Source: Phycisphaerales bacterium (GTDB lineage: Bacteria > Planctomycetota > Phycisphaerae > Phycisphaerales > UBA1924). From it: 64,000 nt of DNA. The notes beneath the pieces are model-generated. The model was not told where the DNA came from. It saw nothing but the letters and a program-made list of their open reading frames with translations, and searched no databases. Shown piece after piece: positions 8,153 through 47,524 of the stretch (position 1 is its first letter; the number at the start of each line of letters is the position of its first letter). The stretch is taken from contig JADYYE010000107.1 of assembly GCA_020853815.1 (NCBI GenBank), forward strand, positions 11,500 to 75,499. The letters run 5' to 3'. Made by a program: the position numbers and the translations under genes.

Positions 8153-8755
8153 TCAACCGCCGGCGTTGAGCTGTTCCTCGCTGGTGCTCCCGATGGGCGG
8201 GCGGAGCTCCGTCACCGCCCGGGCGGGATTGCCCTGAATCACCGTCGAATCCGGGAAGCTCCGGTACAGGCTCGAGCGCGGCCAGACGCGGCAGTCGGCC
8301 CCCAGCGTCACGCCCGGCGCGAGATAGCTGTCGATCCCGATGAACGTCCGCGGGCCGATCGTGATGGGCGGCGTGAGCAATGGGAAACGCGGGTCGGTGA
8401 AGTCGTGCGTGCCGGCGCAGAGATGGGCGTGGTAGTCGATCACCACGCCGTCGCCCAGCGTGATCACGCCGAGGTTGTAGAGAAGGACGCGGTGCCCGAT
8501 GTCGCAGTCATCGCCCGCGACGAGGTTCCACGGGATCGTGACCTCCGACGTGCTGGCGAAGCGGCAGTTGCGGCCGACCTTGGCGCCGAACAGCCGGAGC
8601 AGCGGCACGCGCAGCGAGGAGAAATACTTCCAGAGCGGCTTGGCGAACGCCATCCACAGAGCGCGGGCGATGTTCTGTCGGCGCGTCCAGGCCGAGTGGC
8701 GGATCGGTGCAGACGAGACCGCCTCCGAGTGGATCGGGTCGGAAATGTTCGACAT
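8153..8755 (-). CDS. hexapeptide-repeat O-acetyltransferase, WcaF-like (second copy)
   Basis: ATG at 8755 (MSNISDP). PLWKYFSSLRVPLLRLFGAKVG plus hexapeptide repeats (ITIGPRTFIGIDSYLAPGVTLGADCRV). Upstream part of the 251-aa ORF rejected. Confidence 0.8.
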   Translation of the reverse strand: MSNISDPIHSEAVSSAPIRHSAWTRRQNIARALWMAFAKPLWKYFSSLRVPLLRLFGAKVGRNCRFASTSEVTIPWNLVAGDDCDIGHRVLLYNLGVITLGDGVVIDYHAHLCAGTHDFTDPRFPLLTPPITIGPRTFIGIDSYLAPGVTLGADCRVWPRSSLYRSFPDSTVIQGNPARAVTELRPPIGSTSEEQLNAGG

Positions 8756-8906
8756 TTGATCGGTGGTGCGCACACGCCCTCCGCGGACCTTCATCCTATC
8801 GGGAGCGCGCGTCCCGGAGGAACACCGAAGCTGGTGCGGAATATCAAGAGGAGGGCCTGGCGGGCTACAGAGACCCCCCGCACGGTCCCGATACACTCGG
8901 AGCCCC

Positions 8907-10298
8907 ATGATCGTCCCGGAAGGCCAAACGAACCACGATCAGACCTCGGCGCCAGCGGTGCCGGAGACGCCCGCTGGTCCGATGAAGTCGGGGCCCACGG
9001 GACCGACCGCACCGCCCACCCCGTCCGCTCAAACTCTCGCACCCGGCGCGCCTGTGGTCATCCTGAACCAGTATTACGTCCCCGACGTGGCGTCGACGGG
9101 GCACCTTCTCCACGAGCTGGCCCGCGAGCTGGTGACGATCGGCTGCGAGGTTCACGCGCTGACCGCCTGGCCCTCCTACGGCCCGCCGGACACTTGGGAG
9201 CCCTGCCCGCTCCGCGAGATGCGCGACGGCGTGGACGTTCGCCGGATGAAGACGACGCGCTTCAGCAAGGACCGGCTTCTGGGGCGCGTCGCGAACTTCA
9301 CGACCTTCACCATCCCGCTGGCGTTGCGCACGCTGATTGGCTCGCGGCGTGATCGGGTGTATCTGTACACGACCAATCCGCCCTTCCTGGGCGTGATCGG
9401 CGCGATGGTGTCGCTTCTGCGTCGTCACACCTATGTGCAGCTGCTGCACGACGCGTACCCGGACATGGCGGTGTGGGTGGGGACGATCAAGAAGGGCGGG
9501 ATCGCCGAGCGCGTCTGGCACGCGATGAACAAGCTCATGTACTCGCGGGCCGCGGAAACGATCGTGCTGTGCGACGCCGCCAAGGAGCTGGTGTGCCGGA
9601 ACTACGCCATCGACCCGGCGCGGGTGCATGTGATCTCCAACTGGGCCGACGGCGAAGTGATCGTTCCCAAGGACAAGCGCACGACCAAGTTCTCGAAGAC
9701 ACACGGGCTGGTGGAGCCCTTCACCGTTCTGTACTCGGGCAACCTCGGGCTGTACTACGAGTTCGAGACGCTGATCGGGGCGGCCGAGCGGCTCAAGGGC
9801 GAGAACGTCAAGTTCGTCTTCGTCGGTTCGGGCGGGCGCAAGGCCTGGATCGCCGAGCAGATCCAGAAGCGCAAGCTGACGAACTCGATCCTGCTCCCCT
9901 ACCAGCCCACGGCCGAGGTGCCCGACTCGCTCCCCTCGTGCGACACGTCGGTCGTCTCGATCGCCAAGGGGATCGAGGGAATCAGCTATCCGAGCAAGCT
10001 GTATACGTCGCTGGCGGTGGGCAAGTCGGTGCTGGCACTCTCGGAGCCCAGGAGCGAGCTCCGCGAACTGGTGGAGAAGCACAAGCTCGGGCGCTGGATT
10101 CAGATCGGAGACGTCGACTCCTGCGTCGCCACCATCCGCGACATGATGGCCCACCCCGAAGAAGTCGCGGCCGAGGGGCGACGCGCCCGCGAGATGTTCG
10201 ACCGCGAGTTCACGCGCCCCATGGCGGCCCGGAAGTACGCTCATGTGCTGGCGCTGGCCGCCCGACGCGCCGGGCTGCCGATCCGCGACGTGCCGTGA
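8907..10298 (+). CDS. GT4 glycosyltransferase, WcaI-like
   Basis: VVILNQYYVPDVASTGHLLHELARELV is a WcaI-type N-terminus, and the C-terminal half is a GT-B fold (YSGNLGLYYEF, FVFVGSGG). ATG at 8907 preceded by GGAG; alternative ATG at 8982. Confidence 0.85.
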   Translation: MIVPEGQTNHDQTSAPAVPETPAGPMKSGPTGPTAPPTPSAQTLAPGAPVVILNQYYVPDVASTGHLLHELARELVTIGCEVHALTAWPSYGPPDTWEPCPLREMRDGVDVRRMKTTRFSKDRLLGRVANFTTFTIPLALRTLIGSRRDRVYLYTTNPPFLGVIGAMVSLLRRHTYVQLLHDAYPDMAVWVGTIKKGGIAERVWHAMNKLMYSRAAETIVLCDAAKELVCRNYAIDPARVHVISNWADGEVIVPKDKRTTKFSKTHGLVEPFTVLYSGNLGLYYEFETLIGAAERLKGENVKFVFVGSGGRKAWIAEQIQKRKLTNSILLPYQPTAEVPDSLPSCDTSVVSIAKGIEGISYPSKLYTSLAVGKSVLALSEPRSELRELVEKHKLGRWIQIGDVDSCVATIRDMMAHPEEVAAEGRRAREMFDREFTRPMAARKYAHVLALAARRAGLPIRDVP

Positions 10299-22951: not shown

Positions 22952-24262
22952 TCATGCGCACGCGGAGTCGGCGTGAACCTCCGGGCTCGCCTCCCGCGCC
23001 GCGGGCGTCGTGCCGGTGTCCACGGGCGCACCGGGCACGTCGGCCTTCCGCCCGCCGAACCGATGCTTGCGCCACGCGTCCTCGTGTACACGCCAGAAGT
23101 GCTCGAAGGATCGCTCGATCGACATCGCCCGCATCGACTCAAACGCCGCCTCGCCCATCGCGCGCCGTCGCTCGGAGTCGGTGACGAGCGACGCGATCTG
23201 ATCCACCCACAGGTCGGGCCGGTCGGCGGGCAACACAAAGCCCGTCCGCCCGGCGTCGACCACTTCCTTCGGCCCGCCGACATCGCTCACCAGCACCGGC
23301 AGCCCCGACGCCTGCGACTCCATCACCACCTGGCCCAGCGTGTCCGTCACCGAGGGGAACACGAAAAGATCGCTCGACGCGTACAGCGCCGACAGCTCCG
23401 CGCCGTGCCGGAAACCGAGGAACACCGCGCCGCTTCCCTCCAGCTCGCGCTCCATCGTCTCGCGAAAGGGCCCGTCGCCCACGATCACAAGCTGCGCCCG
23501 CGCGCCCGCGGCACGGAGCCTCGCCGCCGCCCGCTTCCACACCGTGTTCAGCAAGGGCAGGTTCTTCTCGATACTGACGCGCCCCACATACAACACGCGC
23601 ACGACGCCGTCGCCCCGCGTTTCGTCGCCGGGCTTGCTGTTGCCGGTCGTGTCGCCGCCCGCCGTCGCGGGGTATCGCGACCAGATCGATGGATCGCGGA
23701 ATCGCCGATCGAAGACACTCGTGTCCACGCCCGGCGCCAGGGCCGTCATGCGCTCGCGGGGCAAGCCCAGCGACACCAGGCGGTCCGCGTAGTCCGCGGA
23801 GCGCGTGAAGACCGCCTTGAACGGACGGTAGAACCACGTCATGTACTGGCGCGTCGTCCACGTCATCGCGTGGTCGTCAAAGAGCTGGTCGATGTACGCC
23901 GGGAAGTCCGTGTGATACACGCCCAGCACCGGCACGCGCAGCATCCTGGCCGCGATGTACCCGATCAGGCCCATCGGCCCGGGCGTCGAGATGTGGATCA
24001 CGTCGGGCTGGTGCCTGTCCAGGTGACGCAGGATCTTCGTCAAGGGCGGCAGCACCAACTCGAGATTCTCATACTTCGGGATCGCGCCCGCGACCAGCGG
24101 CGCAAAGTTGTAGATGTTCGATCGCGTCGGCACCGGCAGACGCGTCGAGGTGATGACCTCAAGATCGCGTCCCGTCCGCTCGGCCATCTCGGCGACGTTC
24201 TGGATGAAGCGGCACACGCCGTTCACGTCGCCCAGCGTGTCGGTGAAGAGAGTTACGCGCAT
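22952..24262 (-). CDS. GT4 family glycosyltransferase
   Basis: MRVTLFTDTLGDVNGVCRF and the C-terminal FPSVTDTLGQVVMESQASGLPV (E-x7-E region). ATG at 24262; upstream extension of the ORF rejected. Confidence 0.85.
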   Translation of the reverse strand: MRVTLFTDTLGDVNGVCRFIQNVAEMAERTGRDLEVITSTRLPVPTRSNIYNFAPLVAGAIPKYENLELVLPPLTKILRHLDRHQPDVIHISTPGPMGLIGYIAARMLRVPVLGVYHTDFPAYIDQLFDDHAMTWTTRQYMTWFYRPFKAVFTRSADYADRLVSLGLPRERMTALAPGVDTSVFDRRFRDPSIWSRYPATAGGDTTGNSKPGDETRGDGVVRVLYVGRVSIEKNLPLLNTVWKRAAARLRAAGARAQLVIVGDGPFRETMERELEGSGAVFLGFRHGAELSALYASSDLFVFPSVTDTLGQVVMESQASGLPVLVSDVGGPKEVVDAGRTGFVLPADRPDLWVDQIASLVTDSERRRAMGEAAFESMRAMSIERSFEHFWRVHEDAWRKHRFGGRKADVPGAPVDTGTTPAAREASPEVHADSACA

Positions 24263-25214: not shown

Positions 25215-25242
25215 TTGACAAGCAGGGAGGGGGGGGTATTCT
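25215..25242 (+). promoter_or_regulatory. candidate sigma70-type promoter with G8 tract in the spacer
   Basis: TTGACA (25215-25220), then a 16-nt spacer ending in GGGGGGGG (25229-25236), then TATTCT (25237-25242). This lies about 50 nt upstream of the ATG at 25295. Confidence 0.4.
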
Positions 25243-25294
25243 GCGCACGATCGTTGGGCCGGACTCCTGACGTACATTATTCAAGGGGAGTGTG

Positions 25295-25573
25295 ATGAAG
25301 CGTTCCTCTCGGGTGCTGAGGCTTGGGTTGTGCTTCATTGCGGGTTTGGCGGGCAGGGCGTTTGCCGACGAATGGCCGTTTCCCTGGCCGCCGGACCCCA
25401 CCCCGGGGGGTGCGCTGTGCGGGCACAACGCGGGGTGCTACGAGCGATCAAGCTTCTACGACTGCCGTCGCTGTTGTGAGGCAAATTGCGACGACAGTAA
25501 CAATTGCAACAATGCCTGCTGGAACCACTTCTGCCGCTTTAGTTCCTCCGATCCGACCTGTCCGCAAGCGTAA
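25295..25573 (+). CDS. small secreted cysteine-rich protein (10 Cys), module copy 1
   Basis: GGGGAG SD lies 4 nt before the ATG. Signal peptide ends AFA|DE. The mature ~68 aa align with 29961..30233 and all 10 Cys are conserved. Confidence 0.7.
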   Translation: MKRSSRVLRLGLCFIAGLAGRAFADEWPFPWPPDPTPGGALCGHNAGCYERSSFYDCRRCCEANCDDSNNCNNACWNHFCRFSSSDPTCPQA

Positions 25574-25642: not shown

Positions 25643-26257
25643 ATGCGGGGGCGTCGGCTCACGAGCGCGTTCGGTGCGTTGAGAGAGCGTCCGAGGCGGA
25701 CGATGGTTCTGTTCGGCGTCGTCCTGATCGGGGGTGGGTGGCTCGTCGGAAGCTGGTTGCTCGGGGAACGGCACCGGAAGGAGCGTGATGAGCGCATCCG
25801 CGCCGAGGCCGTTGAGTTCTCCAAGAAAACCGGTGCAGGTATGGACGCGTCGGTTGCGATCTGCACGATGGGCGTGGACCCCGACCAGCTCCAGAAGCTG
25901 CCGCTGGATGAGTTGAAGCGCTGGAGCATTTGGTACTCGGAGTTCGAGGGCAAGGATCGTCGCCGGGTGGCCGGATATTGCAACGCGCTGTTCCATCCCG
26001 CCTCGATCAGGAATTTCAGACAGGAACAGCTGGAGATCGCGCGGAACGCCACCAGGGAGATCATCGGAGAGTTCTGGAACGATCCCAAGATCATCGGGCA
26101 GGCCTATCTCATCGCGGTCGGCCTCGGGATGCGGGACGAGCCATACATTCAAGAAATGGCGCTCGATACGATTCAAGCCCCGGGGATGGCGCCCGAGTTG
26201 ATCAGCATGATCTCCCACTCCGTACTTCCCAAGAAGAAGAGCGAAAAGGAAAAATAG
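25643..26257 (+). CDS. single-pass membrane protein, module copy 1
   Basis: GGAG lies 6 nt before the ATG at 25643. TM helix MVLFGVVLIGGGWLVGSWLL. The block LEIARNATREIIGEFWNDPKIIGQAYLIAVGLGMRDEPYIQEMA is nearly identical in 30246..30842. Confidence 0.7.
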   Translation: MRGRRLTSAFGALRERPRRTMVLFGVVLIGGGWLVGSWLLGERHRKERDERIRAEAVEFSKKTGAGMDASVAICTMGVDPDQLQKLPLDELKRWSIWYSEFEGKDRRRVAGYCNALFHPASIRNFRQEQLEIARNATREIIGEFWNDPKIIGQAYLIAVGLGMRDEPYIQEMALDTIQAPGMAPELISMISHSVLPKKKSEKEK

Positions 26258-26259
26258 CC

Positions 26260-27393
26260 ATGCCGACGGGAAACCACTCGGCGCAACGTCACCACTCTCT
26301 CGCTCCGAGGGGGAGACCGCCGGGGCGCCGCGGGGGTTTCTCTCTAGTTGAGCTGCTGGTCGTGATCGGGATCGTTGCTGTATTGGTCGGGCGTACTCTC
26401 CCGGCGCTCGCGGCCGCGAAGGCGCGCGCCGCGCGGGCGGCGTGCTTGTCGAATCTCAGAGGACTCGGGCAGGCTGTTGCCCAGTACCGAAGCCGGCACC
26501 AGGATCGCTTCCCGGACGCGGACTTGCTCCCGGACATCCCGGCCGGAAAGCCCGGCGTGATCGAACCCCTCTCACCTTTCTTGGACTGCGCCCTTCCTCG
26601 CGTTGGCGCGGCGGGCGATGTCGAAACGGACGCCCCGTGGCGCTGTCGCTCCGACGCAGTCGTCGCGCGACGCTTCGGAATGAGCTACGAGTATGAACTC
26701 GCGACGCTGATCATGGCGTACAAACTTGGCGGCACGCAGAACCCGCACGCCAAAGTCGCGAACACGGCGGACACCGACGGCGGCCTGGTCCTCTTCTCGG
26801 ACGCAGGCGCCGCCGCGCGACTTGCCGCGGGTGATTCAGCCCCCTGGCACCGCGGCCCAAACGGAAAAGAGCGCAACTCGCTCTTCGCGGACGGCCGCGC
26901 GGATTGGGAGAAGAATTCGCCGACCCGCGCAACACGCCGCGGGCCGCCGCTTGCCCCGCGCCGACGACGGACGAACGGAGAGCCGATCCGCCTCCTCTTC
27001 GCCCTCAGTCCACGCTCGCCCTCGCCATCGGCCTCGACAACTCCAGCATCCGATCAACCGCCAAGAGCGCCTGCGCGCACCTTCTCCGGCACGCTGATCT
27101 GGTTCACAACCTTCGCCTTGCCGTCCTTCGACAACGCGCCCGCCATCGCTCATCGCGCCGACGAGCGGGAGGCATCGCGAACCCGCACACCTCGGGCGGG
27201 ACGGCGGATCAACATGCCAGCACTGGCGAAGAAAAGAGTCACGGCCCCCGGCGCGGGCACAACCCGCCAGACCACATGGTTCGTCAAATCGGAGACGTAC
27301 AAATGCCCGGCGTCGTCAAAGGTGAGGCCGCTGATCTGGCCGAACCCCGAACCGACCTGTTGTACCGCGCCGCCGGCGCGCGGCAGCGAGTAG
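26260..27393 (+). CDS. prepilin-type N-terminal cleavage/methylation protein (H-X9-DG-like), module copy 1, abnormally extended 3' end
   Basis: GFSLVELLVVIGIVAVLV leader/helix. Aligns with 30839..31501 up to ADGRADWEK (~26915). The frame then stays open for a further ~480 nt through the nadA fragment and the antisense of the next gene. Confidence 0.65.
   Translation: MPTGNHSAQRHHSLAPRGRPPGRRGGFSLVELLVVIGIVAVLVGRTLPALAAAKARAARAACLSNLRGLGQAVAQYRSRHQDRFPDADLLPDIPAGKPGVIEPLSPFLDCALPRVGAAGDVETDAPWRCRSDAVVARRFGMSYEYELATLIMAYKLGGTQNPHAKVANTADTDGGLVLFSDAGAAARLAAGDSAPWHRGPNGKERNSLFADGRADWEKNSPTRATRRGPPLAPRRRRTNGEPIRLLFALSPRSPSPSASTTPASDQPPRAPARTFSGTLIWFTTFALPSFDNAPAIAHRADEREASRTRTPRAGRRINMPALAKKRVTAPGAGTTRQTTWFVKSETYKCPASSKVRPLIWPNPEPTCCTAPPARGSE
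27004..27145 (-). pseudogene. duplicated, frameshifted fragment of the nadA 3' end
   Basis: By hand alignment it is about 90% identical to 28577-28720 (the last ~47 codons and stop of nadA). A 2-nt deletion breaks the frame. Confidence 0.8.
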
Positions 27394-28133
27394 AGATTCT
27401 CGCCGTCACCGACGATGAACGAATCGGTCGACGGCTGATACACCATCGCATCGGGGAGAGACCAGGCATGACCGCCATCGGAGACCTTGGCAATCGACCC
27501 GTCCGGCGCGATCGCCCAGACGCCGAGGTCTTCCAGCGTCTCGGTGCAGTACAGGCCGCCCGCCGCGAACTGGATGGAACGCACGACCGACAATTTGGGC
27601 GAGGAAACCAGCGTCTGCGCAGGGCTGCCGGCAAACAACAATTCAACATCGGCGCCGTCCCGTGCGTTACCGACAACCGCCGTTCCAGCGGTGAAATACG
27701 TGCCGTCCTTGTCAATGACCATGCTCGACTGATTGGGTGATCCGCTCGCGCTCGCCCAGAGGGTCGTTATGCCGGTCGTAATCTCGGTGCGATACACCGG
27801 GCCTTCCGTCGAGGCGTAGACATAGCCGTCGTACACATCAATCCCGTCGGGGTCTTCGGGTGTGATCGAGCCGAACGCGACCGCCGCGCCCCCGCCCGCC
27901 GGAATCCGATAAATATCGGCCGCCCCGTTGCTCGGTGAGTGGTGTCCGGCGAAAAGAACCCCCCCCGGCCCGAACGCGAGCTCGAACGGGTTCGTCGCCG
28001 TGGCATAGACGCTCGCCGGGTTGCCCAGCCAAGTCGGCTGAGCGCACGCCGAGCTCGTCACAAAGACACAAGCGCAAACAGCGATGAGCGCGCTTGAACG
28101 AGAAAACGATCCGCCATTATGATTCTTTCCCAT
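27150..28133 (-). CDS. secreted beta-propeller (NHL/SMP-30-like) protein with PEP-CTERM-like tail
   Basis: GAGGAG lies 8 nt before the ATG at 28133. Signal peptide LIAVCACVFVTSSACAQP. Repeated G..Y/L-strand motifs (LYCTE, LYSLP, LYVSD). C-terminus VPAPGAVTLFFASAGMLIRR resembles a PEP-CTERM sorting signal. Confidence 0.7.
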   Translation of the reverse strand: MGKNHNGGSFSRSSALIAVCACVFVTSSACAQPTWLGNPASVYATATNPFELAFGPGGVLFAGHHSPSNGAADIYRIPAGGGAAVAFGSITPEDPDGIDVYDGYVYASTEGPVYRTEITTGITTLWASASGSPNQSSMVIDKDGTYFTAGTAVVGNARDGADVELLFAGSPAQTLVSSPKLSVVRSIQFAAGGLYCTETLEDLGVWAIAPDGSIAKVSDGGHAWSLPDAMVYQPSTDSFIVGDGENLYSLPRAGGAVQQVGSGFGQISGLTFDDAGHLYVSDLTNHVVWRVVPAPGAVTLFFASAGMLIRRPARGVRVRDASRSSAR

Positions 28134-28577
28134 CTCTCTTCTCCTCAAAGGACACCGCCGAGACTACTGGGTGCTTGACCCCACTTCAAGCACAATTCCG
28201 CCCGGCTCTCCTTTATTTTCAGGATCACACAATCCCAATTCTCGGACCTTGGGACTTCGCTTTCGCCGCGTTGCGACGCGCGGGGGAGAGGTGCCGCATC
28301 AAGGGCGACCGGCCTACGCGCCCAGTTCACCGCTTCAGCTCTACGTCCTCGAGCCCCGCGCCTTCGGACGCCGGACCTGATACGGATTCTGCTTGGAAAC
28401 CGCGCGTGACTTGGGCTACCCCCACGCTCCGCGTGGGGTTCCTTCAGGCCCTCCAAGCGCATGTTCCAACGAGAATCCGTATGAGGCATTGCGAAGGTCC
28501 GGGTCGACGCAACGAGATCGCCCGTTCGCGCCGAACTCACTCGACCACTTGACCACTTTGCCACTTTTCGCTTGGCC

Positions 28578-29819
28578 TCAATCCACGCCCGCCTTCGCCC
28601 CCGGCCTCGACAACTCCAGCATCCGATCGACCGCCAACAGCGCCTGCTCGCGCACCTTCCCCGGCACGCTGATCTGGTTCACGATCTTCGCCTTGCCGTC
28701 CTTCGACAGGCCGCCCGCCAGGTGATCGAGCACCCACAACAAATGCGGCTCATCGATCCGGTACATCGTCGTGCACAGGCACTGACAATCGCTCAGGATG
28801 CGCACCTCAACGCCCCGTGCCGCGGCCTCTTTCGCAAGCCTTCCCACCAGGTGCGTCTCGGTACCAACCGCCCAGCGCGATCCCGGCGCCGACGCGCGGA
28901 TCGCCTGGATGATGAACTCCGTCGACCCCGACAAGTCCGCGAGGTCCACAACCTCTTTGCAGCACTCCGGGTGAACCAGGATCTTCACGCCCTCGCGCGT
29001 CGCGCCCGCCGCCTTCTCGCGCTCGTTTTCCTCGCGGATCGCGCGGCAGTGCTCCGGGCGGAACAGCTTGTGAACCGAGCAATGCCCCGCCCACAGGATC
29101 ACCTCCGCCCGCTCGATCGCCCCGCGCGATGAGCCGCCCAGCTCCTTGCCCGCGTGCGCCGCGCGCGGGTCATAGAGCGCCGCCCGCGTGGCGACATCGA
29201 TCCCCGCCGCCGCGGCCGTGTTCCGCCCCAGGTGCTGATCGGGCAGGAACAAAACCTTGATCTCCTCGCCCGGGCGCGTCGGGATCGTGCCGCCCGCGCG
29301 GGCCCACGCGAAGACCTGCCTTGCGTTCGAGCTGGTGCAGCACGCGCCGCCGTTCGCTCCGACAAACGCCTTGATCGCCGCCGACGAGTTCACATAGGTG
29401 ATGGGCACGACACGCGCGTTCAGTTTCGCGTCCTTGATCACGCGCTGGATCGAATCCCACGCCTCGACCGTGTCGTCGTACTGCGCCATGTCCGCCATCG
29501 AGCAGCCCGCGGAAAGATCGGGCAAGATCACCGCGACATGGTCGGGCGTCAGCATGTCCGCCGTCTCGGCCATGAAATGCACGCCGCAGAACACGACGTA
29601 CTTCACCGGGCGTTCCTTGGCGACGCGGGCGGCGACCTGCGAGAGCTTGAGCGAATCGCCCGTCGCGTCGGCGTGCCTCACGACCTGATCGGTCTGGTAG
29701 TGGTGGCCCAGGATGAAGAGCGAATCGCCGAGCTCCTTGCGGCGCGCGTCGATCCGGGCCGCGAGCTCGTCCTCGCTCAGCGTGCGATACACCTCGGGGA
29801 GTGATGGTTGCCAGAGCAC
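28578..29819 (-). CDS. nadA: quinolinate synthase NadA
   Basis: ILGHHYQ, VVFCGVHFMAETA, ILPDLSAGCSMADMA, CCTSSNA and HPEC blocks are NadA signatures. GTG start at 29819. Confidence 0.9.
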   Translation of the reverse strand: MLWQPSLPEVYRTLSEDELAARIDARRKELGDSLFILGHHYQTDQVVRHADATGDSLKLSQVAARVAKERPVKYVVFCGVHFMAETADMLTPDHVAVILPDLSAGCSMADMAQYDDTVEAWDSIQRVIKDAKLNARVVPITYVNSSAAIKAFVGANGGACCTSSNARQVFAWARAGGTIPTRPGEEIKVLFLPDQHLGRNTAAAAGIDVATRAALYDPRAAHAGKELGGSSRGAIERAEVILWAGHCSVHKLFRPEHCRAIREENEREKAAGATREGVKILVHPECCKEVVDLADLSGSTEFIIQAIRASAPGSRWAVGTETHLVGRLAKEAAARGVEVRILSDCQCLCTTMYRIDEPHLLWVLDHLAGGLSKDGKAKIVNQISVPGKVREQALLAVDRMLELSRPGAKAGVD

Positions 29820-29878
29820 GCGGGGATGGTAGTAATCCCGGGGTTAGACGGGATGCCAAACTCGACTTGACGGGTTGA

Positions 29879-29893
29879 GGGGGGGGGGGGGGG
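29879..29893. repeat. G15 homopolymer in the nadA / module-2 divergent intergenic region
   Basis: 15 consecutive G counted directly. It is preceded by TTGACG (29867-29872) and followed by ATAGGCT. Confidence 0.95.
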
Positions 29894-29960
29894 ATAGGCT
29901 CGGAGGAGGGTCGTGAACGATTCTGTGCGATAGACCAGCTTGTTGAAGGGACTCGAACTG

Positions 29961-30233
29961 ATGCAAACGCGAAACATCACCCGTCTCGGCCTGTGCTTTG
30001 CCGCTGGGATTGCGTGCTCCGCCATCGCCGACGGGTGGCCATATCCTTGGCCACCGGACCCGAACCCAGGCGGCGCTTTGTGCGGCTACCAATCCGGGTG
30101 CCAAGACAAGGCAGACTTCAACTCCTGCACGCGTTGCTGTGATACCCATTGCGACGCGAGTAATAATTGCTATAATGCGTGCTGGTTCTTCTTCTGCACC
30201 AACGGCAAGACCAGTGCCGGCTGCCCACAGTGA
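29961..30233 (+). CDS. small secreted cysteine-rich protein (10 Cys), module copy 2
   Basis: MQTRNITRLGLCFAAGIACSAIA|DG signal. The mature part aligns with 25295..25573 (WPyPWPPDPxPGGALCG...RCC...SNNC.NACW..FC...CPQ). Confidence 0.7.
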   Translation: MQTRNITRLGLCFAAGIACSAIADGWPYPWPPDPNPGGALCGYQSGCQDKADFNSCTRCCDTHCDASNNCYNACWFFFCTNGKTSAGCPQ

Positions 30234-30245
30234 CAGGATTAGACG

Positions 30246-30842
30246 ATGCGGACCAACGACCTCACGCGTGGCGCGTCTTCGCAGAGTCGGCGCCGAGTAG
30301 CGGTTGTGCTGGCAGGGTTGTCCTTGATCGCCTCCGGGTGGCTTGGCGGCCGGGCGATCCTTCGCGAGATGCACCGGCGGGATCGGGCGTCCCAAGTCCA
30401 CGCCGAAGCAGTTGAGTACGCCCAGAAAGTTCATGTGAGCATGGAGGTCGCAACCGCCATTTGTGAACTTTGCGGCGACCCCGGCGCGATTGCGCGCATG
30501 TCCCCGACGGAGCTGCGCCGGTTGGCGACGCGGTACGCGGACTTTGAAGGCCCCGACCGCGCACGCGTCGCCAGGTATTGCAACGGGCTGTTTCATCCCG
30601 CCTCCATTCGAGAGTTGAGTGACGAGCAATTGGAAATCGCCCGGAACGCCACCCGCGACATCATCGGTGAGTTCTGGAACGACCCCAAGATACTGGGTCA
30701 GGCGTACCTCGTCGCGGCCGGACTTGGTCTGAGGGATGATCCATACATCAAAGAGATGGCAAACCAGACCTTGCAAGAGCCCGGGCTTGATCCAACGCTC
30801 GCCGACACGGTCATCGTGGCCATTCTGCGCCCTCAGAAGTGA
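30246..30842 (+). CDS. single-pass membrane protein, module copy 2
   Basis: ATG lies 12 nt after the previous stop. TM helix VAVVLAGLSLIASGWLGG. Conserved C-terminal block shared with 25643..26257. Confidence 0.7.
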   Translation: MRTNDLTRGASSQSRRRVAVVLAGLSLIASGWLGGRAILREMHRRDRASQVHAEAVEYAQKVHVSMEVATAICELCGDPGAIARMSPTELRRLATRYADFEGPDRARVARYCNGLFHPASIRELSDEQLEIARNATRDIIGEFWNDPKILGQAYLVAAGLGLRDDPYIKEMANQTLQEPGLDPTLADTVIVAILRPQK

Positions 30843-46601: not shown

Positions 46602-46750
46602 TGAGGGCGCGGAGCGCGATGACTCGGTCGAATGGGCGCGCGGGGCAACCCGGGGCGTGTCGGTCGGTTGAATTGGTCCGAGGATGGCCTGTTGAGGCTG
46701 GCGGGGCGGCGTGATTGGGCGAGCGGCATCGGCGGTGCGTGGGGTTGAAC

Positions 46751-47524
46751 ATGCGTCAGTGGGTGCGCGTGACAGGGCGGCGGATGAGCGGCGGGCCTGG
46801 CGTTCGCCGGTCGTCGGGCGGGGCTGATTCGCGGGCGCGCGGATTCACGCTGATCGAGCTGCTGGTGGTCATCGCGATCATCGCGGTGCTGATCTCGATT
46901 CTGCTCCCGGCGTTGTCGCAGAGCCGCGAGGCGTCGCGGCGCCTGAAATGCCTGACGAACCTGAAGGGCATCGGGATGGGGCTGTCGATCTACATGCAGG
47001 AGAAGTCCAAGGGGGTGTTGCCAAGGGTTCGGCCTCTGCATGACGACAGTTCGTCGGAGAATGATCCGTCGCTCTTGGACATACTGGAGGAGTATGTGAG
47101 CGCCCCCAGGCCGCGCAAGGGGGAGGACGAGCTGTACATCGTGGCGGACCCGTACAAGTGTCCGTCGGATGTATCGTCGAACTCGGAGGAGGACGCGTTC
47201 CGCCCCGTATGGCAGACGACGGGGACGAGTTATGACTACATCCCGGCGATCTACATGCTGGCGGCGGAGGTGATCGGGCTGGTGAACCCGGACCGGACGG
47301 CGCGGGCGGTGACCAAGGCGTATGAGAAGTGGAAGGACTCGGGGAAGGACTGGTCGATCCTGGTGGACGCGGGGGACTGGCACACGCAGAAGAAGAACGC
47401 GATCCCGCGGAACGGGCTGTTCATGTTCGACTGGCGGGCGGACTGGGCGGGCGTGGCGACGGAGGAGGAGAGCACGGAGTTTCTGAAGGACGTGCTGAAG
47501 TTCGGGAACTCGCCGTTGAATTAG
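46751..47524 (+). CDS. prepilin-type N-terminal cleavage/methylation protein (DUF1559/H-X9-DG-like), solitary third paralogue
   Basis: [41 protein letters not shown]. The C-terminal [24 protein letters not shown] parallels the module proteins. Confidence 0.8.

Follow-up and report, generated by a model that had tools for sequence, protein, structure and literature searches.

The locus considered here raises the question of what two small, exported, cysteine-rich proteins encoded a few genes apart do for the environmental bacterium that carries them. Both lie in a 64-kb stretch of DNA, referred to below as the window. An initial annotation described them as a disulfide-stabilised scaffold of ten conserved cysteines with a Trp/Pro-rich N-terminus, expected diversifying selection on them, and suggested a bacteriocin, a toxin or a signalling ligand. 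The two genes, termed A1 and A2, are as follows.

A1, 25295..25573, plus strand: 92-aa precursor composed of a signal peptide (25295-25366) and a mature 68-aa, ten-cysteine protein (25367-25570).
A2, 29961..30233, plus strand: 90-aa precursor composed of a signal peptide (29961-30029) and a mature 67-aa, ten-cysteine protein (30030-30230).

The list of open reading frames and direct reading agree on both genes, and the coordinates first reported for them are correct. A1 begins with an ATG at 25295 (an alternative GTG start lies at 25292) and stops at 25573; A2 begins with an ATG at 29961 and stops at 30233. The two precursors align by BLASTP without gaps and share 49 of 91 residues (54%, E = 4e-29), and by this alignment A1 and A2 are paralogues. 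Over the 67 aligned residues of the mature proteins the identity is 57%. Cysteine is found in both copies at all ten cysteine columns, while 12 of the 38 intervening residues between the first and the last cysteine are identical, in agreement with the original description of retained cysteines set among mostly different residues. The best-conserved segment outside the cysteines is the Pro/Trp-rich N-terminal arm (14 of 17 residues identical). The consensus pattern given initially is sound overall, with one miscount: GC-x6-F should read GC-x5-F. No third copy was detected by tblastn in the 64-kb window. The orthologue of A1 in contig L001 is 97% identical, and orthologues of A2 are present in contigs L001-L010. 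The reading frame is a genuine coding frame, because mature A2 and its L008 orthologue differ with a dN/dS of 0.027 at a dS of 1.16.

Some A2 orthologues are damaged. In L001 (position 9929) and in L002-L006, at the site that corresponds to window 30174-30185, Cys8 is replaced by Arg (TGC to CGC) and nine cysteines remain; these six contigs come from different samples. In L007 (67-357) a TAT-to-TAA change creates a premature stop just upstream of the Cys8 position. Together these changes hint that the second copy is dispensable, and it may be under relaxed constraint in some strains.

The N-terminal segment of A1 is MKRSSRVLRLGLCFIAGLAGRAFA, followed by Asp-Glu at the cleavage site AFA↓DE, and that of A2 is MQTRNITRLGLCFAAGIACSAIA, followed by Asp-Gly at AIA↓DG. 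Each has a basic n-region, a hydrophobic core with a maximum Kyte-Doolittle value of 2.1-2.2 over 12 residues, and an A-x-A motif preceding the aspartate, and this layout is common to every relative. The assignment rests on the classical rules (n-region, h-region, small residues at -3 and -1) and on conservation among relatives. Both copies obey these rules at the cleavage sites proposed earlier, and A is predicted to be a precursor exported by Sec and cleaved by signal peptidase I. A lipoprotein was considered and rejected, there being no canonical lipobox before a cysteine in the h-region of the signal peptide. Mature A is acidic (pI 4.4-4.5), unlike most membrane-active antimicrobial peptides.

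AlphaFold2, supplied with an alignment of 13 sequences, predicts a compact structure for mature A1 (mean pLDDT 86, pTM 0.74) in which three helices occupy residues 15-22, 30-40 and 45-57 and the N-terminal arm has a pLDDT of about 80. A Foldseek search of the PDB and BFVD with the model gave nothing below E = 5. Most family members have ten cysteines, among which C2, C3, C4, C5, C7 and C8 are invariant. C9 and C10 have been lost together in five sequences (P0010, P0012, P0016, P0018 and P0019) and C1 and C6 together in two (P0016 and P0018). Such loss in pairs argues for disulfides and against metal-binding thiols; the Cys8-to-Arg change of the A2 orthologue in L001-L006 is an exception to it. 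In A1 the second predicted helix carries C33-x3-C37 and the third carries C47-x3-C51, with nine residues between the two motifs, and C36 falls inside the first X3 of this twin CX3C motif. From the twin spacing we infer the pairing C1-C6, C2-C4, C3-C8, C5-C7 and C9-C10, within which C1-C6 and C9-C10, the covarying pairs, are the only ones with direct support. The view of A as a disulfide-stabilised, secreted mini-protein scaffold thus gains support from the confident predicted fold, the paired loss of cysteines and the existence of homologues.

Those homologues are few. A profile of A1 and A2, run exhaustively with HMMER against 1.84 billion cluster representatives, gave 12 matches. Nine of them are true relatives, with the D-P-x-P-G-G motif, a signal peptide and the cysteine pattern of A1 and A2; they are 89-103 aa long, one being called as 201 aa owing to an upstream start. 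Three long, repetitive proteins on the same list (P0014, P0015 and P0017) were rejected as partial profile matches through their repeats, and P0015 and P0017 proved on inspection to be unrelated repetitive proteins. Two further relatives came from a profile search of an indexed set, which brings the total to about 11 clusters, and a scan of JGI metagenomes added two more loci. The homologues that the initial annotation proposed to seek among metagenomic proteins therefore exist, and the lack of them, which it had named, together with a lack of evidence for expression, as a reason to abandon the scaffold, does not apply. A word-indexed search of 5.8 billion proteins with A1 found no match, and neither did Pfam, NCBIfam, PHROGs or PADLOC with A; a PDB sequence search gave chance matches only (E 0.42). 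No relatives were found in GTDB species genomes, scanned with one A pattern and one B pattern, in a scan of viral contigs, or by tblastn against GenBank phages and PLSDB plasmids. As far as these searches can tell, the A family is very rare and undescribed, yet real.

The initial annotation overlooked that each A gene opens an operon of three genes, present in duplicate, behind a poly-G promoter. The genes that follow A in the two cassettes are listed below.

B1, 25643..26257, plus strand: 204-aa protein in which a single membrane helix at the N-terminus precedes an all-helical domain; 51% identical to B2.
C1, 26260..27393, plus strand: type IV pilin-like protein with matches to N_methyl and TIGR02532; its conserved part ends near 26919.
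B2, 30246..30842, plus strand: 198-aa membrane-anchored helical protein; the AlphaFold model is all-helical, with a pLDDT of 71.
C2, 30839..31501, plus strand: type IV pilin-like protein whose start overlaps the B2 stop (GTGA).

Neighbouring genes of a module are separated by 0-70 nt or have overlapping stop and start codons (in the window, 3-70 nt or an overlap); in L001 the start of C2 is a later ATG that corresponds to 30893. Terminator-like sites on the plus strand are absent from the intervals between the genes of both cassettes, and the sole such site in both cassettes is weak and falls inside the region that encodes the A1 signal peptide. The order A-B-C recurs twice in the window, twice in L001, and in L008, L018, L020, L023-25 and L027-29, among lineages that are only 23-37% identical in B. 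In the loci collected here A is always the first gene of the module, an arrangement conserved in at least six lineages. L026 has A and B alone, without C. The mature N-terminus of A carries a P-[YF]-P motif in six of the six lineages that have C and lacks it in L026 and L017, both of which are without C, a correlation drawn from a small sample. In L011, L014 and L017, where the relatives of A have six or eight cysteines, the next gene encodes an exported protein, helical and 174-192 aa long, for which hhalign against B gives E = 6e-4 at a probability of 29%, indicating weak homology.

The B protein, too, matches no described family. Its hydrophobic segment spans residues 22-40 in B1. Pfam, NCBIfam, PHROGs and PADLOC contain no match to it, a PDB sequence search returned chance matches only (E 0.04), and the indexed database holds only five relatives. 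The best Foldseek matches of its model, which is only moderately confident, are ARM/HEAT repeats at non-significant E values of 0.2-1.

The C protein is more readily placed. All eight members exceed the TIGR02532 cut-off (C2 scores 25.1 bits against a cut-off of 16.3), PF07963 scores are 23.3 and 26.3 against a cut-off of 21.2, and the N-terminus of C2 matches GspG at 2e-9. The prepilin cleavage/methylation N-terminus has the form GF[ST]L[IV]E, and C1 reads GFSLVELLVV. In comparisons with solved pilins the match is confined to the N-terminal helix. C2 falls below the threshold of PF07596 (DUF1559), at 15.2 against 23.3 bits, and the match of C in L023 is faint. Genes for pilus or type II secretion assembly were found neither in the window nor in any related locus. 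A third pilin-like gene of the window, at 46715-47524, lies directly after lpxC without an A or B partner; its product shares 35% identity with C2 across 153 residues and narrowly misses the threshold of PF07596. As this paralogue stands alone, the C family is broader than the module. C may accordingly be a generic membrane-anchored periplasmic protein, because no pilus or type II secretion assembly genes are linked to it and its paralogues occur alone. C1 has lost its stop in the window, where the TAG of L001 has become TCG and the frame extends to 27393; the read-through (26917-27393) adds about 158 codons and runs into a duplicated nadA fragment, antisense to an NHL-repeat gene.

That gene belongs to a 1.42-kb insertion at 27146-28566 relative to the syntenic contig L001. 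The insertion is bordered on both sides (27003-27145 and 28576-28720) by copies of the 3' end of nadA, which form direct repeats of about 145 bp with 89-92% identity.

Secreted NHL-repeat protein with a PEP-CTERM-like tail, 27150-28148, minus strand, within the 1.42-kb insertion.

A link between this gene and the NHL gene that follows the A-like pair in L014 was considered and dropped, only the PEP-CTERM-like tail being shared. In three lineages the A cassette adjoins surface-polysaccharide genes of the glycosyltransferase, epimerase, sulfotransferase or Wzy type (window 22952-24262; L011:6361-16312; L027:1002-5777 and 8568-9542), which may be coincidence. Scanning the window for Rfam families and tRNA genes gave no match.

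Selection on the module was measured against L001, which is 91% identical to the window at the DNA level, and against more distant orthologues. The dN/dS values against L001 are 0.10-0.27 for A, 0.22-0.25 for B, 0.35-0.49 for C and 0.06-0.18 for the flanking housekeeping genes. In comparisons with the more distant orthologues, at dS 0.8-1.2, mature A2 gives 0.03-0.06, B 0.23 and C 0.15. A is under strong purifying selection and, being lower in dN/dS than B and C against the distant orthologues, is the most constrained gene of the module. Nor are the paralogues of A more diverged than those of its neighbours, the identities being 57% for mature A1/A2, 51% for B1/B2 and 56-59% for C1/C2. With dN/dS for A at 0.03-0.27, on the whole no higher than in the neighbouring genes, the diversifying selection that had been expected of A finds no support.

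Upstream of each A gene lies a promoter-like sequence with a poly-G tract.

A1 promoter, 25215..25242, plus strand: TTGACA (25215-25220), a 16-nt spacer ending in G8 (25229-25236), TATTCT (25237-25242).
A2 promoter-like sequence, 29867..29900, plus strand: TTGACG (29867-29872), a 22-nt spacer with G15 (29879-29893), TAGGCT (29895-29900).

A consensus scan scores the A1 promoter at 10 of 12 matches with a 16-nt spacer, and the same layout is present in L001. Homopolymers of at least 8 bases are scarce in the 64 kb, where three are seen against about 14 expected from base composition, and two of them, the G8 and the G15, each lie 60-70 nt upstream of an A start codon. The third, a C8 run at 27959-27966, lies within the inserted NHL-repeat gene, whose coding strand reads G8 there; slippage at this site would shift the frame. 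Throughout about 130 kb of the 29 related loci, runs of at least 8 G or C are nearly confined to the DNA upstream of A genes, and every A gene of the A-B-C clade has a poly-G tract in or beside its promoter spacer. Upstream of A2 the spacer measures 16 nt in both L001-L006 and L008, with tracts of G8 and G11, respectively, and L007 carries G14; upstream of A1 the two strains compared both have G8. In lineages further removed, the tract just upstream of A is G10 (L023-25) or about G32 (L020). In L020 (1-215) an inverted copy of the 5' end of A is joined through C31/G32 runs; this inverted start is probably an assembly artefact at the homopolymer, which makes the length of G32 unreliable. Assembled lengths in general may be unreliable through assembly error, since the poly-G tract is where several contigs break. 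The tract length is constant among samples of the same strain (G8 in six contigs, G10 in three), and switching on a short time scale is for that reason not supported by the contigs. In the window an alternative -35 element, TTGAGG, would give a 15-nt spacer, so that the on/off state cannot be read from the sequence. By analogy with known promoters of this kind the module is possibly phase-variable through its poly-G spacer.

Taken together, these features are best accommodated by a pilin-associated periplasmic or surface module, possibly phase-variable, to which we assign a probability of roughly one in three. A, B and C would be co-transcribed, with A first, from a sigma-70-like promoter. Cleavage of A1 or A2 by signal peptidase would release an acidic protein of about 7.5 kDa, which would fold in the periplasm into a three-helix bundle with five disulfides, preceded by the Pro/aromatic-rich N-terminal arm. 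B would be anchored in the inner membrane by its single N-terminal helix, with an alpha-solenoid (ARM/HEAT-like) domain facing the periplasm, and C, as a type IV pilin-like protein, would be processed by prepilin peptidase and inserted into a type IV filament or pseudopilus, the machinery for which would be encoded elsewhere. We infer the contacts of A with B and with C, the export of A beyond the periplasm and the switching: B would bind or hold A in the periplasm, perhaps by the Pro/aromatic arm; C would present A on the filament or push it out, in the manner in which minor pilins hook the N-terminus of TcpF/CofJ; and the poly-G tract would set the distance between the -35 and -10 elements, so that slippage could switch expression up or down. 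The fuller claim, that A-B-C is an unrecognised type IV filament accessory system in which a pilin-like protein displays or exports a five-disulfide mini-protein under the control of a poly-G switch, we regard as doubtful.

We also weighed four other readings. A could be a pheromone-like signal sensed by membrane-anchored B, each paralogue having its own partner and C being accessory. The size of A, its disulfide-locked structure and its strong conservation (dN/dS 0.03-0.06) would befit a ligand whose partner is fixed, A and B are neighbours in every case, including L026, which lacks C, and both triads have been kept as diverged paralogues. Disulfide-rich pheromones of three helices are known in ciliates, which for A is an analogy only. 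This ligand-receptor arrangement is nonetheless rather unlikely, given that B has only about 15-20 cytoplasmic residues and no recognisable output domain, that its distant relatives bear cleavable signal peptides in place of anchors, and that no regulator gene is linked. Similar gene layouts are common among toxins, in which a small secreted cysteine-rich protein is followed by a membrane protein, and the main idea of the initial annotation can be extended to a pair in which A is a bacteriocin or toxin exported by Sec and B is the immunity protein in the membrane. The cognate A/B pairs have been duplicated and have diverged, a distant A-like gene sits in the phage-like contig L017, and the helix-loop-helix CX3C...CX3C arrangement is also that of the antimicrobial alpha-hairpinins (PMC11591084). 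Against this reading, A is under strong purifying selection with no excess divergence, its mature form is acidic at pI 4.4-4.5, and its genes are chromosomal and syntenic between strains. PADLOC, PHROGs and the plasmid and phage sets give no matches, the leader is of the Sec type and not of the double-glycine type, neither the cassettes nor the 29 related loci encode an ABC exporter or any other transporter, and B exceeds typical immunity proteins in size and complexity. We consider it unlikely that A is a bacteriocin. Among the functions listed originally, the label of bacteriocin or toxin thus draws no positive evidence from the pI, leader or neighbours of A; A may yet be a signalling ligand or a pilus-associated factor.

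The poly-G promoter tract, typical of contingency loci for surface traits (PMC5320596), and the linkage to a pilin-like gene also suit a modifier of the cell envelope, in which A and B would act on filament components such as C, changing the surface and blocking phage or pilus function, with stochastic switching and occasional carriage by phages for superinfection exclusion. In L017 (1-5568) an eight-cysteine A-like gene (P0010) and the gene for an exported, B-like helical protein lie between terminase-like and portal-like genes, with a GroES-like gene nearby, which suggests through weak matches that this pair is carried by a phage or prophage. Since the terminase match reaches only E = 7e-4, the portal match is below the Pfam cut-off, L017 has no GenBank phage match and the viral contig scan found no relative, such a modifier is quite unlikely. 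Very improbable, finally, is a periplasmic metal-binding or redox-buffering protein with ten thiols in place of disulfides. Cysteine makes up 15% of mature A and is arranged in CxxCC and CxxxC spacings, as a thiol protein might show. Its compartment is an oxidising one, however, the number of cysteines is even, they have been lost in pairs within the family, clusters of His or Met are lacking, and a confident helical fold is predicted without a ligand.

Should the preferred reading of a pilin-associated module hold, the known folds of bacteria would be joined by a new disulfide-rich family, and one subgroup among the numerous orphan pilin-like proteins found in PVC-type bacteria would gain a first functional handle. 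Homopolymer phase variation, best known in host-adapted pathogens, would also be extended to free-living GC-rich bacteria, and the locus would be the first of the contingency type to be described in this environmental lineage, which probably belongs to the PVC group. The placement in Planctomycetota/PVC is deduced from the pilin-like paralogues, the PEP-CTERM-like tails and the GC content. A small protein predicted to be hyper-stable could be of interest to protein engineers. If the mechanism is wrong, a rare conserved family of modest interest remains.

Judged by its sequence and predicted structure, A lies outside any described family; the separate elements of the module are of known kinds, and their combination and the protein families are new. 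The nearest likeness in motif is to the alpha-hairpinins (PMC11591084), in which C-X3-C...C-X3-C staples an antiparallel helix-loop-helix by disulfides, as it is predicted to do in A. Those are plant peptides with 4-6 cysteines, cut from larger precursors, whereas A has a bacterial Sec signal, ten cysteines, a third helix and a Pro/Trp-rich arm; the likeness is one of motif alone, with no similarity by sequence, Pfam, PDB or Foldseek. The planctomycete DUF1559 or H-X9-DG pseudopilin-like proteins (PF07596; TIGR04294) resemble C in its prepilin N-terminus and in a C-terminal W-H...R-N-x-L-F-x-D-G motif. In C, however, the spacing from His to DG is 13 residues and not 9, the PF07596 scores stay below the cut-off (15.2 and 21.8 against 23.3), and an NCBIfam search gave no match to TIGR04294. 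On these scores C is pilin-like by its N-terminus and not a demonstrable member of DUF1559.

The proposed roles of C and of the poly-G tract have precedents. TcpF of Vibrio cholerae and CofJ of ETEC are soluble proteins secreted by type IVb pili (PMC9565799, PMC6048534), and TcpF is hooked by the minor pilin TcpB (PMC9565799). Like A they are Sec-exported, soluble and encoded in one operon with pilin genes, and their aromatic-containing N-terminus after the cleavage site is a conserved recognition element, a part that the arm of A might play by analogy. They differ from A in size (about 35 kDa), and in sequence and fold they are unrelated to it; the pilus machinery is encoded in full in their operons, together with a large minor pilin, whereas a single pilin-like gene accompanies A. 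Poly-C or poly-G tracts between the -35 and -10 elements of Neisseria fetA and porA cause transcriptional phase variation (PMC5320596). The poly-G tract of A likewise fills a promoter spacer and differs in length between related strains (8, 11, 14 and 15), although its host appears to be an environmental, GC-rich bacterium, probably of the PVC group.
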